NCBI RefSeq assembly: GCF_024223415.1
Contig: NZ_CP100500.1
Source: Escherichia coli
GTDB lineage: Bacteria; Pseudomonadota; Gammaproteobacteria; Enterobacterales; Enterobacteriaceae
Length of the DNA stretch: 64,000 nt
Strand: one strand, 5' to 3'
Part shown: positions 26,701 to 29,700 of the stretch, piece after piece
Numbering within the stretch: the stretch's first letter is position 1
Layout: every line of letters begins with the position of its first letter
Program-made: the position numbers

Positions 26701-29700
26701 GTCTGCCGGTATTACCGCAAAATGGTTATCCAGCGTGGTGCCTGAACCCCTGCGTCCCGGTACCGCCTGCGGCTGTTCGCCGTGAAGATCGCTCGCCACC
26801 ACCTGCCATTCCCGGTTCAGGTTCGCCTGCGGATGCCCCGTCAGCACAATTTGCCGTCCCGGCCATATCTCCGGCGAACGGCTTGTTCCGCGCGCCACTT
26901 CTGCGTTGTTGCGCCAGCCATCCATCTGCCAGCGGGCAAAGTTCTGCCCGTGGGCGCCCTTGAAACGTCCGGGGTAGTCATACACTTCATACTGTGTGCG
27001 CTGGTAATCCTGGTACTGGCCTTCCTGATCAAAACGCCCTGCCCAGCCGGGTCGTTTAAAGGTGTAGTCTTTGGTCACCACGGAAGAAGGGCGGATTTGT
27101 GCGCTGTAGCGAAACTGGCTGATGCAGAGGGTGCTTACCTCGGTACGGGTGTTCGGATTCCAGGGGATCTCAAAGGACTCCGGCAGATAACGCACGGTAT
27201 CGCACAGGACCAGGCTTTGGTCGGTACTTTTTTGCGCGTGCTCCTCATAAAAGAAGATGCCTTCCTCCGCCGCCATCCGGCACAGGAAATCGTAATCAGT
27301 CTCACCGTACTGGACACAAAACTCACGGGAAGGATGTGGCTCGCTGAACAGCGGGCTCCACTCGGTCACCCCGTTTTCCTGCAATATCGTGCCGAGGATG
27401 CTTTCGATGTCCTCATTCTGGAAGATACGGAAGTTCTGGCGCAGCCCTGTGCGCCACAGCGGCGGGCATACCTTCATGCTGTACAGCTTCTGGTTTTTGT
27501 CGTTCTCCCCCAGTTCAAACCAGGTCACCACACCTTTCACCCGGCGCTGTACGTCATCGCCCTGCCATATCGTCAGGTAGGCCATTTTGTCGAGGATCTG
27601 CTGGAATTCAAGGGAGAGAAACTGCTGGCTGACCAGAGAGAGATCGAGGGAAAAAAGCGAAGAGAGTGACTGGTTCAGATGAAAGGAGACCACCGCAAAA
27701 GCATCCGGTGGCAGGCCGTCCACTTCCAGCGTGAAACGTAATCCGGTTGACATAGCAACCTCCGGGGTTAAGGAAAAACAGACAGTTCACTGTTAAAGCG
27801 GCTGTGACAGTACAGTGTTACGCTTGCGTTCAGGCACGCTACCGCCGAAGTTTCCGGCAGCCGCCATCTCCCGTGAACGTAACCCCTTACTGACAACCTT
27901 TCTTTCTACGGCGTAATACAAAAACAGCATCCGGCCTGATAGCCGGATGCTGTTGGCTTAACTTATGCTTCCAGCGGTGCGCGCCAGTCGTCGGCACCGG
28001 AGGTGCCAGATTTGACGTGTTCCCATTCAATTTTGCGGTAGGCCAGTGAAACTTCGAGCAACTGGGTGAACTCGCGTTTCGCCGGGTCCTGGCAATGCGG
28101 CATATGCAGTTTCATATCGACAATCGTCGAATCAGTCAGGCGGGTAGTGAAATAATGCTCCTGTTTGCCTTCCACAGAGGTACGCCACCAGTGAAGTTCA
28201 GTGGTTGGCAGCATTTCGCCGGAGGCCAGTGCGTTGTACATCAGCGGAACCGCTTTGTTCAGCGCCACGGTAAAAATGAAAGGCTTGTGAGCACGCTGAC
28301 CCGCAGGCTGACCGGACTGAGGATCGGTCGGGACAGTAACGTTATGCAGGAATTCCTGCACCAGCATCTCGTCTTCGTGCCCCTGCACATAGATGTTGCC
28401 GACAGAATCAGCGGTAAATGCACCTGCAGTAATATTTCCCTGGGTCTGACCAGTGATGGAGATATAACACGGTGTTGGCATTTGTAAACTCCTTGTTAAC
28501 GTGGTTAATTACTACTTACAATGACCTGCCGTTAATCCCAGACAGGCAGATGCAGCTCACTTCACGGAACCGCATCATTTTTCAGTATTTTTTACATACA
28601 AACCGAGCTAGAATTTACGGTTGTCGTAAAAACTATTTTTAAAATCATTAAATCTCTTATTCAGCAATAACTTAATAATATATATCTGGATAACCATACC
28701 CAACTGTTCAAAGTCCGTATTGCCTCCATAAAATGGCCAAAGCTGAATCATGAATAAATATTGTATTTATCCTTTCTGAATTATCATTTTGATAATTTTT
28801 GAGATATTCCTTAAAAATACCCACTTAATCAATCACAAAACAAACATATAAACAAGCAATCATTAGATTAGCTTATGTTTAATAAAATTATTATATAATT
28901 CAATAAGATGCATAAAAAACTCTATATTTAAATTATTGCCATAATACACCTGACGCGAATTGCACAGGTTCATACAATCTATTTAACGCTTGCAGAATAC
29001 CCCTCTTTACGATCGATAAAAAGTCCTTTTATTATTTATTTTGAAGCGTAAAATGCGGGGTGATGAAGGAGTGGTGATTTTATTTTCACCGCCATCAAGG
29101 CGGCATTTCCGATATTTTTTGCGGTACGAATATGCCGTGTTCATGGCCTGTACGAGATAACATGACGGATCACTTTTATGAGCAAAAAATTTGAAGGCAG
29201 CGTCGCGCCTCGCGAGCGTATTAATATATCGTATGTCCCAAAAACAGATGGCCAGACGGCTGAAGTGGAACTTCCGCTTAACATGCTCGTTGTCGGCGAT
29301 ACCGGAAATACGCAGGAAACATCCTCACTGGATGAACGTCAGGCAGTTTCCGTTAACAAGCACAATTTCGGTGCAGTGATGGCTGAAGCAGCCATTGGCC
29401 TCAATTTTACCGTCCCCGCCACGCTGAAGGGAAGCACAACGGACGATGAGCTGAATGTGGCGCTGAATATCAAGTCACTGGATGATTTTTCACCAGATAG
29501 CGTGGCCCGGCAGGTTCCGGAAGTGAATAAATTGCTGGAACTGCGTGAAGCACTGACTGCACTGAAGGGGCCGATGGGTAACCTTCCGGCATTCCGTACC
29601 CAGCTCCAGGCATTGCTGGAAAATGAAGAGTCCCGCGAGCAGTTGCTCAAAGAAATCGGCCAGGTGAGCAATAAATAACCACCACTATTTCATTAAACAG

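Follow-up and report, generated by a model that had tools for sequence, protein, structure and literature searches.

The 696-bp spacer between the divergent genes hcp and tssB is best explained, with a probability of about 0.85, as the bidirectional promoter and silencing region of the Escherichia coli T6SS-2, containing a conserved promoter core on the tssB side and a hairpin in the hcp leader; a Fur-like palindrome and a set of inverted repeats within it would be incidental. The window, that is the whole stretch of 64,000 nucleotides analysed here, carries a region that is not new, namely the already-studied divergent promoter of T6SS-2, the commonest T6SS of E. coli, which is called t6sP in EHEC. 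According to the scheme that we favour, RNA polymerase would transcribe the tssB-to-vasL unit rightward and hcp leftward from weak sigma-70-type promoters lying in this AT-rich spacer of about 700 bp, and coating of the spacer by H-NS would keep both units off under laboratory conditions.

On the left side of the spacer, hcp (27963..28481, minus strand) is a 172-aa ORF for an Hcp family T6SS tube protein and heads the leftward hcp-vgrG-rhs unit; a 99.9% identical record annotates its product as an Hcp family effector. On the right side, tssB (29178..29678, plus strand), a 166-aa ORF annotated as the contractile sheath small subunit, opens the rightward structural operon, and Pfam PF05591 is present in TssB homologues. 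Since hcp is bounded at 28481 and tssB starts at 29178, the spacer spans positions 28482..29177; it is the largest gap of the annotated T6SS cluster. Its GC content of 32.8% ranks with the lowest along the 64 kb and drops locally to 0.25-0.28 at 28600-29000; the window as a whole has 51.7%, hcp 0.54 and tssB 0.51. Six small ORFs (36-56 aa) are found in the spacer, several of which are broken by indels within E. coli; no conservation of small ORFs or of a leader peptide was detected outside E. coli, and an Rfam search in E-value mode over 27700..29700 gave zero matches. These data bear out the first-pass annotation as far as it described an AT-rich divergent region of roughly 700 bp devoid of an ORF, and confirm that observation in part only: the spacer is real, whereas the sequence motifs proposed within it, discussed below, are at chance level.

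The assignment to the T6SS-2 island is based on the hcp/tssB order, the annotation, the position on the yafT/yafV side and the near-identity to the EHEC t6sP. Specifically, the likeness to t6sP of EHEC O157:H7 EDL933 (Wan 2016/2017; Kim, Lee & Yoon 2022; Vazquez-Lopez 2026) extends to locus, gene order and DNA sequence, the identity with O157:H7 strains being 98.7-99.1% over all 696 bp. The few SNPs that distinguish the window include A for C at 29031, in the weak -35 element (most E. coli carry C at this position), T at 28967, and G for A at 29100, by which GGCGG is kept where O157 has GACGG; nothing in these changes suggests a different regulation. Of 5426 complete E. coli genomes, 2235 (41%) carry the spacer with an identity of 95-100%, always unannotated, and this locus is treated for S. 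sonnei in PMC10924462.

The view that this is an H-NS-silenced control region, also put forward in the first-pass annotation, stands but was already published. T6SS transcripts of O157:H7 rise on hns deletion (PMC5363993), and both H-NS occupancy between hcp3 and tssB and several mapped transcription starts have been reported (Kim et al. 2022, as cited in PMC13141884, which describes the EHEC spacer as an H-NS-bound bidirectional promoter with several starts, silent in vitro and derepressed in an hns mutant). Because the O157:H7 spacer is about 99% identical to that of the window and H-NS repression was shown there, the H-NS reading is right but already known; its basis, as regards repression, binding and multiple starts, is the literature on a 99% identical sequence. 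In phylogroup B2/APEC strains as well, clpV2 and hcp2B are altered by hns inactivation (PMC5874247). The composition of the spacer is that of an H-NS-silenced region, its GC of 0.328 being well below the 0.517 of the window and the 0.51-0.54 of the genes on either side. The high-affinity H-NS motif TCGATAAATT shows no enrichment in the spacer beyond composition, with three matches of at least 8/10, at 28725, 28789 and 29013, where shuffled sequences average 2.4 (P = 0.44); A/T tracts number 20, compared to 15.2 +/- 2.7. The match TCGATAAAAA at 29013 is an example of a candidate H-NS nucleation site. Full protein expression is not reached in EHEC by hns deletion alone, so that H-NS silencing is not the whole mechanism. 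The Salmonella SPI-6 T6SS is reportedly silenced by H-NS too (Brunet et al. 2015), and is said to represent a general model for the xenogeneic silencing of T6SS promoters. The likeness consists in a horizontally acquired T6SS with an AT-rich promoter region held off by H-NS; SPI-6, however, belongs to another T6SS subtype and is unrelated in sequence, and the T6SS genes flanking the spacer of the window have a genome-like GC content, AT-richness being confined there to the spacer.

A scan of a genome collection with TssB gave four loci, to which further lineages were added through protein homologues. Altogether, 11 enterobacterial lineages have hcp and tssB separated by 536-705 bp with a GC content of 29-34%, showing that the hcp-spacer-tssB architecture is ancestral. 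In the four most distant lineages (Superficieibacter, C. farmeri, Enterobacter and Buttiauxella) the architecture is kept and the spacers are unalignable; the alignable spacers come from seven lineages falling in two clades, and a six-lineage alignment including B2 has a mean pairwise column identity of 0.45. The APEC/NMEC phylogroup B2 T6SS2 is an orthologous cluster whose hcp2B-vipA2 spacer has a like architecture (705 bp, GC 0.316) and shares with the window the conserved core blocks and the hcp leader hairpin. Nevertheless, it is a diverged allele, missing from the 2264 blastn matches to the spacer of the window, and it lacks the palindrome at 28779..28797. The B2/APEC spacer was found to be H-NS-repressed, Fur-independent and CpxR-bound (Ma 2018, PMC5874247; Yi 2019, PMC6534853), but the reported CpxR site belongs to an insertion specific to B2, which the window does not have.

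The alignment points to the segment 29016..29054 as the sole promoter core conserved across genera, in which a weak -35 and a -10 element are combined with an A/T block. Specifically, the -10 hexamer TAAAAT of the predicted tssB-proximal sigma-70-type promoter (29049..29054, plus strand) lies within GCGTAAAATG, which is kept in Escherichia, Salmonella, Citrobacter and Yokenella; two E. coli carry the variants TAGAAT or TGGAAT. Upstream, the conserved A-tract/T-tract block ATAAAAAGTCCTTTTATTA (29016..29034, plus strand) takes in the weak -35 (TTTTAT, 29027..29032) as well as an UP-like proximal subsite, and a -35-like hexamer TTyTCw is placed 16 bp from the -10 in four of six lineages. Transcription of tssB would accordingly start at about 29060-29062, which would leave about 115 nt of leader ahead of the gene. 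The conserved island CTTGCAGAATACCCCTCTTT (28989..29008, plus strand), at approximately -72 to -53 of this putative start, is a candidate contact region for an upstream activator or for alpha-CTD; Salmonella, Yokenella and C. youngae share with it the part GAAGAATAC..CCT. The conservation scan retrieved a further island, ATATAATTCAATAAGAT (28893..28909, no strand assigned), which contains TATAAT at 28894..28899.

Consensus scans of the spacer for sigma-54, CRP, IHF and OmpR sites returned none, and the RcsB-like consensus occurred at chance level. In particular, the -24/-12 pattern TGGCAC-N5-TTGC, as expected for a bEBP of the VasH type, had no match in the spacer at up to two mismatches, and no bEBP gene is annotated in the cluster. 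Two other candidates were rejected. CpxR-like GTAAA-N4-8-GTAAA pairs number three against 0.87 expected (P = 0.08), one of them in the hcp Shine-Dalgarno region, and the published APEC site is the B2-only one mentioned above. PhoP-like half-sites number nine against 2.4 expected (P = 0.01), all with 2-3 mismatches; their source is a set of TGTTT repeats at 28826..28865, and E. albertii does not conserve them.

As regards the leftward unit, whose transcription would start upstream of 28546, no positionally conserved sigma-70 promoter for hcp was found in the lineage alignment. A promoter-like match on the minus strand, ATGATA-16-TACAAT, is present in the window, and the candidate -10 (TACAAT, 28760..28765) is overlapped by the conserved island TCATGAATAAATATTG (28748..28763, no strand assigned), detected by the conservation scan.

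According to the first-pass annotation, a Fur-box-like element would be among the best candidates for control of the island. The sequence TGAATTATCATTTTGATAATT is located exactly at 28777..28797, and it does contain a true palindrome, AATTATCA-TTT-TGATAATT (28779..28797, no strand assigned), a perfect 8-3-8 inverted repeat, but its resemblance to a Fur site is no better than that of shuffled sequence. Were the proposal correct, Fur-Fe2+ would bind 28779..28797, repress one or both promoters and make the island iron-responsive, by analogy with the sci1 T6SS-1 of EAEC. The palindrome matches the 19-bp Fur consensus GATAATGATAATCATTATC at 12/19 positions, the best match anywhere in the spacer being 13/19, which 44% of dinucleotide shuffles reach or exceed, so that 12/19 is attainable by chance; since the validated Fur boxes of sci1 themselves match at only 13/19 and 11/19, such a count is nonetheless compatible with Fur binding. 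The site also holds two perfect GATAAT hexamers, TGATAAT being found twice against 0.38 expected (P = 0.05), its left arm overlaps the -35 (ATGATA, 28782..28787) of the predicted leftward promoter, and none of the papers found tests iron or fur on this exact allele, a literature search on the T6SS of O157 having returned nothing relevant to either. By contrast, when scored with a position weight matrix built from 12 K-12 Fur promoters, the palindrome reached 6.3 bits, compared to 10.5-22.1 (median 16.3, leave-one-out) for those promoters, and the top match in the spacer, at another position, scored 10.2 bits, equal to the shuffle mean. The geometry is likewise against it: the half-sites are everted (ATTATCA-N3-TGATAAT, with a 3-bp spacer), whereas Fur sites are head-to-head, 7-1-7 TGATAAT-N-ATTATCA or 9-1-9, and the best 7-1-7 matches in the spacer have four mismatches, four such matches being observed against 3.1 expected, which is chance level. 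In addition, the palindrome is polymorphic in E. coli (A28786G, which breaks the dyad, in two of eight sampled), has a changed left arm in E. albertii, where the site is partly retained, and is absent from five alignable lineages (B2, 21AR0303, Yokenella, C. youngae and Salmonella). The sci1 promoter (Brunet et al. 2011, PMC3145626) resembles that of the window in being an E. coli T6SS tssB-proximal promoter, poorly expressed in vitro, with similarly low consensus counts; yet it represents another T6SS family, and the two sequences are unrelated. In sci1, titration and gel shift have confirmed Fur boxes overlapping the -10 and flanking the -35, and Dam GATC sites are present as well, whereas the candidate of the window, some 260 bp upstream of the conserved -10 of tssB, has a lower score than any real site and lacks conservation. 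The spacer has two GATC sites (29011 and 29168), neither of them inside the palindrome. Moreover, the site predictions for the EHEC spacer do not include Fur, and in B2/APEC strains clpV2 and hcp2B are unchanged by iron limitation or fur inactivation (PMC5874247), which is indirect evidence only, because the B2 orthologue lacks the palindrome. With consensus, matrix, geometry and conservation all failing it, control of the island by Fur at this site is highly improbable.

The same palindrome could instead be the operator of a non-Fur dimeric regulator, specific to the non-B2 E. coli allele and acting at the -35 of the leftward hcp promoter. This would agree with the perfect dyad of 8-bp arms, with its overlap with the predicted ATGATA-16-TACAAT promoter and with the conservation of the neighbouring island 28748..28763. 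Palindromes with arms of at least 8 bp, however, occur in about 20% of shuffles, the A28786G change disrupts the dyad in a quarter of the E. coli sampled, no regulator can be named, and the target promoter is itself predicted and positionally unconserved; we therefore regard such an operator as very unlikely. A different proposal concerns the inverted repeats reported near 29073..29100, which are indeed present in the putative tssB leader (29073..29103, plus strand) as GGTGA-TTTTATTT-TCACC, with an 8-nt loop (29073..29090), overlapping CCGCC-ATCAA-GGCGG (29089..29103), and which might serve as a DNA operator, or as an RNA attenuator or leader-peptide switch, controlling tssB. Both hairpins can form, the first being part of the minimum-energy fold of the predicted leader; a T-run follows at 29115..29120, and a 39-aa ORF overlaps the segment. 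Nevertheless, 5-bp arms like those of 29073..29090 are present in every shuffle, and the repeats belong to a stretch of about 53 nt which the Yokenella/C. youngae/Salmonella clade lacks and in which E. albertii shows only degenerate sequence. As E. coli-specific elements that follow the conserved -10, they make unconvincing candidates for an operator common to the lineages. As for a switch in the RNA, the GACGG of O157:H7 breaks the stem of the second repeat in its right arm; the T-run is 12 nt off the stem and polymorphic in length (T6 or T7), which frameshifts the unconserved 39-aa ORF; a terminator scan of the plus strand found nothing; and the fold z-score of the leader is only -1.8, its alifold helices GCCAU/AUGGC and GCGGCAU/AUGCCGU being plausible and weakly supported. 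A role of these repeats in controlling tssB is hence improbable, and the reading of both the palindrome and the repeats as incidental features of AT-rich or lineage-specific DNA is the most likely one.

A feature that is new here, albeit modest, is a covarying hairpin in the hcp leader. The stem-loop (28525..28546, minus strand), with stem CCUGUC/GGCAGG and a GGA-containing loop UGGGAUUAAC, lies 43 nt upstream of the AUG and is found in the minimum-energy fold of all seven alignable lineages. Its G.U wobbles form valid pairs on the hcp-sense strand alone, and 92.9% of cells are paired, compared to 32-44% with slid partners. Three pairs are changed on both sides, and the covariation score was reached by 10 of 500 shuffles (seven lineages, two clades). 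For the hcp leader, RNAalifold run unsupervised returned no structure, the 3' arms of the two clades having been misaligned by MAFFT; trimming the sequences to the hairpin resolved this. The loop GGA is at the 5' side of the loop in 7/7 lineages, as GGAU in six of them. A second GGA, 43 nt away, overlaps the hcp Shine-Dalgarno AAGGAG (28489..28494, minus strand), which lies in the block CATTTGTAAACTCCTT, conserved in seven lineages.

Leaders with two CsrA/RsmA sites carry one GGA in a hairpin loop and another in the Shine-Dalgarno sequence, as exemplified by RsmA acting on Pseudomonas T6SS, and the hcp leader resembles them in both respects. The distance between its two GGA motifs is within the range of about 10-63 nt over which CsrA is reportedly able to bridge two sites. 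The SELEX consensus of CsrA is RUACARGGAUGU, to which the hairpin loop is a partial match only. A transcriptome study found hcp3 and tssC of EHEC to be negatively regulated by CsrA (Wang 2017, as cited in PMC13141884). The layout of the leader, with a GGA displayed by the hairpin upstream of that of the Shine-Dalgarno, would be suited to translational repression and makes it a candidate of the CsrA type. That the two elements constitute a two-site CsrA switch, conserved in Escherichia, Salmonella, Citrobacter and Yokenella across their related T6SS clusters, is a tentative proposal, which on present evidence is rather unlikely.

In conclusion, the established picture of an H-NS-silenced divergent promoter is unchanged by the present analysis. 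The recognition of the Fur-like string as a chance feature spares a wrong lead, and the phylogenetic footprint narrows the search for an activator to the core at 28989..29054, to the hcp leader hairpin with its loop GGA and to the conserved length and AT-richness of the spacer. If a CsrA switch were indeed in place, it would lock the synthesis of the tube protein post-transcriptionally, in addition to the silencing by H-NS, and could help to explain why the system does not fire after H-NS relief or promoter swap.

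The hcp (27963..28481, minus strand, 172-aa ORF) and tssB (29178..29678, plus strand, 166-aa ORF) genes diverge from a 696-bp spacer (28482..29177), whose GC content is 0.328 and falls to 0.255–0.28 at 28600–29000 (200-bp windows); the 64-kb window as a whole has 0.517, hcp 0.54 and tssB 0.51. The spacer is the largest gap of the annotated T6SS cluster and, within the window, one of the stretches with the lowest GC. GC is likewise low (down to 0.24) at 48451..51050 and 51501..52050, where the far end of the island lies. Six possible ORFs of 36–56 aa can be drawn inside the spacer, several of which are broken by indels between E. 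coli strains and none of which is matched by an ORF in E. albertii or in other lineages, so that the first-pass annotation correctly described a long, AT-rich and ORF-free divergent region. An Rfam search around the spacer returned no match.

The spacer was found in 2235 of 5426 complete E. coli genomes at 95–100% identity, in one copy each, almost always chromosomal and without annotation in all matching genomes; the O157:H7 spacer is 98.7–99.1% identical over the full length. In a 99.9% identical record, it is preceded on the left by yafV, IS remnants and the TPR protein, Rhs, vgrG and hcp genes, and followed on the right by tssB, a 74-aa hypothetical protein, tssC, E, F, G, tagH, tssJ, K, L, H, vasI, tssA, tssM, a VasL-domain protein and a second hcp. 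This neighbourhood is that of the T6SS-2 island of E. coli. Within the species, the spacer occurs in at least three diverged alleles (28482..29177 compared to 2526..3230 of locus L013 and 2501..3182 of locus L012): alongside the window's allele, the phylogroup B2/APEC allele, located through a published APEC primer sequence, is carried by 543 genomes, and a third by about 29. The B2/APEC spacer, 705 bp long, is heavily diverged, with a mean pairwise column identity of 0.45 across a six-lineage alignment.

In EHEC EDL933 the spacer has been termed t6sP, an 'unknown bidirectional promoter', and was swapped for Ptac/PBAD; neither promoter was consistently activated by any medium (PMC13141884, 2026). 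As relayed in that article, H-NS occupies the DNA between hcp3 and tssB (Wan 2017, Kim 2022) and several transcription start sites map to the spacer (Kim et al. 2022). In addition, deletion of hns increases the z0254, z0264 and z0267 transcripts, an effect reversed by complementation (PMC5363993), and the same region has been studied in S. sonnei (PMC10924462). Given this EHEC and S. sonnei literature, the H-NS silencing put forward in the first-pass annotation is supported but not new. All together, we assign a probability of about 0.85 to the spacer being the H-NS-silenced bidirectional promoter region of T6SS-2.

To the B2 and third E. coli alleles we added orthologous spacers from E. albertii, Yokenella regensburgei and Citrobacter youngae, as well as those of Salmonella enterica, Superficieibacter, C. 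farmeri, Enterobacter and Buttiauxella, obtained via TssB homologues. The same architecture, hcp followed by 536–705 bp at GC 0.29–0.34 and then by tssB, was observed in 11/11 lineages; therefore, the long AT-rich spacer is an ancestral, maintained trait of this T6SS subtype, and not a recent accident. The spacer sequence is alignable in seven lineages, in which the conserved islands are the hcp start and Shine-Dalgarno (28470..28502), part of an hcp leader hairpin (28534..28547), TCATGAATAAATATTG (28748..28763), ATATAATTCAATAAGAT (28893..28909), CTTGCAGAATACCCCTCTTT (28989..29008), ATAAAAAGTCCTTTTATTA (29016..29034), AAGCGTAAAATGCG (29044..29057) and the tssB Shine-Dalgarno and start (29165..29189).

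Specifically, the islands at 28989..29008, 29016..29034 and 29044..29057, the last before the tssB Shine-Dalgarno, have the spacing of a sigma-70 promoter. The conserved -10 is TAAAAT (29049..29054), replaced by TAGAAT or TGGAAT in two variants from E. coli; 16 bp upstream of it is a weak -35 that reads TTTTAT in the window, TTTTCT in most E. coli and TTCTCA in the Salmonella clade, with an A-tract at about -46 to -38 and another conserved block at about -72 to -53. This is the sole positionally conserved promoter-like site in the spacer, and its position implies a putative tssB start near 29060–29062, with about 115 nt of leader. No leftward (hcp) promoter is positionally conserved among the aligned spacers. 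Three natural variants fall within the predicted tssB promoter and leader, namely the A at 29031 in the weak -35 (C in most E. coli), the change at 29051 that in some strains gives TAGAAT for TAAAAT, and the length of a leader T-run (29115..29120). Just upstream of the -35, at 29009..29022, a palindromic CGATCGAT with a Dam GATC at 29011 adjoins TCGATAAAAA, an 8/10 match to the high-affinity motif of H-NS; this arrangement is retained in E. coli, and the GATC is gone in E. albertii.

Iron control through Fur was the other proposal for this region, and a perfect inverted repeat, AATTATCA-TTT-TGATAATT, stands exactly where the Fur-box-like element had been placed (28779..28797). It matches the Fur consensus at 12/19 positions; the top match in the spacer is 13/19 (28753..28771), a level reached in 44% of dinucleotide-preserving shuffles. 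The best matches in 12 control promoter regions of classic Fur-regulated K-12 genes (fepA-fes, fepD-entS, fepB-entC, fur, cirA, ryhB, sodA, fecA, fecI, fhuF, gpmA and fhuA) range over 12–17/19. The experimentally validated Fur boxes of sci1, the EAEC T6SS-1 cluster, reach only 13/19 and 11/19, so that the consensus count alone cannot decide against Fur binding. With a symmetrised 19-bp matrix built from the 12 controls, the palindrome scores 6.3 bits, against leave-one-out scores of 10.5–22.1 (median 16.3) for the controls themselves, and the top site in the spacer (10.2 bits, 28634..28652) equals the shuffle mean maximum (10.0 +/- 2.6, P = 0.42). Fur sites are arranged head-to-head, TGATAAT-N-ATTATCA, whereas the half-sites of the palindrome are everted around a 3-bp spacer; the best matches to the 7-1-7 geometry carry 4 mismatches, like shuffles, and dyads with arms of at least 8 occur in about 20% of shuffles.

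Nor is the palindrome conserved: A28786G disrupts its left arm in 2 of 8 E. coli sampled, E. albertii has AATCTCA in place of that arm, and it is missing from the B2 and third E. coli alleles as well as from Yokenella, C. youngae and Salmonella. On the other side, TGATAAT occurs twice in the spacer against 0.38 expected (P = 0.05), and the left arm shares bases with the -35 of a promoter predicted to read leftward, ATGATA-16-TACAAT. In B2/APEC T6SS2, iron limitation and fur inactivation are without effect and hns inactivation derepresses; the B2 spacer is a diverged allele devoid of the palindrome, which limits the transfer of these Fur and iron data to the window's allele, for which a literature search retrieved no Fur tests. 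With consensus, matrix, geometry, dyad frequency and conservation all against it, we regard a Fur box at this palindrome as very improbable, and a role for Fur in the spacer is neither demonstrated nor predicted. The window's three top matrix matches (12.0–12.7 bits, at 49967, 50404 and 51713) lie within the far-end low-GC stretches and are probably composition-driven. A separate TGTTT(A) repeat cluster (28826..28865, minus strand), not conserved in E. albertii, holds 9 PhoP-like half-site pairs against 2.4 expected, each with 2–3 mismatches.

The inverted repeats likewise proposed as control sites, GGTGA-N8-TCACC (29073..29090) and CCGCC-N5-GGCGG (29089..29103), which have two bases in common, are not supported in that role. 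Arms of 5 bp occur in all shuffles, the surrounding segment of about 53 nt is wholly missing from the Yokenella/C. youngae/Salmonella clade and unrecognisable in E. albertii, and O157:H7 has GACGG in the right arm of the second repeat. Being downstream of the conserved -10, the repeats would act as RNA if functional; the predicted 130-nt leader has a folding energy of -34.8 kcal/mol (z = -1.8), 11/200 shuffles folding as well or better, and a nearby T-run (29115..29120) is T6 or T7 by strain. They are thus regarded as lineage-specific leader sequence rather than a common control element.

On the hcp side, the sense (minus) strand of 28525..28546 folds as CCUGUC-UGGGAUUAAC-GGCAGG, 43 nt upstream of the AUG, and a matching hairpin is present in the minimum-energy fold of 7/7 alignable lineages from 4 genera. 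Its stems are fully paired on the sense strand (6/6 to 8/8; Salmonella 7/8), and the G.U wobbles, which would become C.A mismatches on the opposite strand, argue for an RNA element. In the correct register 92.9% of alignment cells pair, compared to 32–44% with partners slid by 1–3 columns. Three pairs show two-sided changes (C-G to U-A twice, G-C to A-U), and the covariation score is equalled in 10/500 shuffles. Since the seven sequences fall into two clades, these results are suggestive but not conclusive. In 7/7 lineages GGA (GGAU in six) is found on the 5' side of the loop, and a second GGA lies within the hcp Shine-Dalgarno AAGGAG, about 43 nt downstream, the classic two-site arrangement of CsrA targets. 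Negative regulation of EHEC hcp3 and tssC by CsrA is attributed to Wang 2017 in PMC13141884, which notes A(N)GGA motifs 8 nt from several start codons and does not describe the hairpin. CsrA binding to the hcp leader is a tentative possibility.

In the H-NS-silenced promoter region favoured here, H-NS would polymerise on roughly 700 bp of AT-rich DNA and occlude weak sigma-70 promoters in both directions; activation would require H-NS relief and further factors, possibly acting via the conserved core 28989..29054. The hcp leader hairpin could gate expression post-transcriptionally, together with the published EHEC 'h3R' region, made up of a terminator, an internal promoter and the vgrG leader, which uncouples vgrG from hcp (PMC13141884) and to which the 209-bp hcp-vgrG gap here (27754..27962) corresponds.

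The 74-aa 'hypothetical protein' annotated in the tssB-tssC interval (29713..29937, plus strand) is homologous to TssC residues 50–102 (34% identity, E = 2e-8). Its Salmonella counterpart has 70 aa (40% identity); in Yokenella, C. youngae and E. albertii the ORF has suffered a frameshift or truncation, and it is missing from the B2 and third alleles and from the more distant Superficieibacter, C. farmeri, Enterobacter and Buttiauxella, lineages in which the tssB-tssC gap is only about 17–23 nt. The ORF has the appearance of a degenerating partial copy of the tssC 5' end and accounts for the 309-nt gap, which may be linked to the reported separate tssB and tssC transcription units.

In conclusion, that this is an H-NS-silenced divergent promoter is already known. 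Regulator sites described for one spacer allele, such as the APEC CpxR site, may be missing from another. To this picture the phylogenetic footprint and the hcp leader hairpin add a little, which may help those who study T6SS-2 induction.
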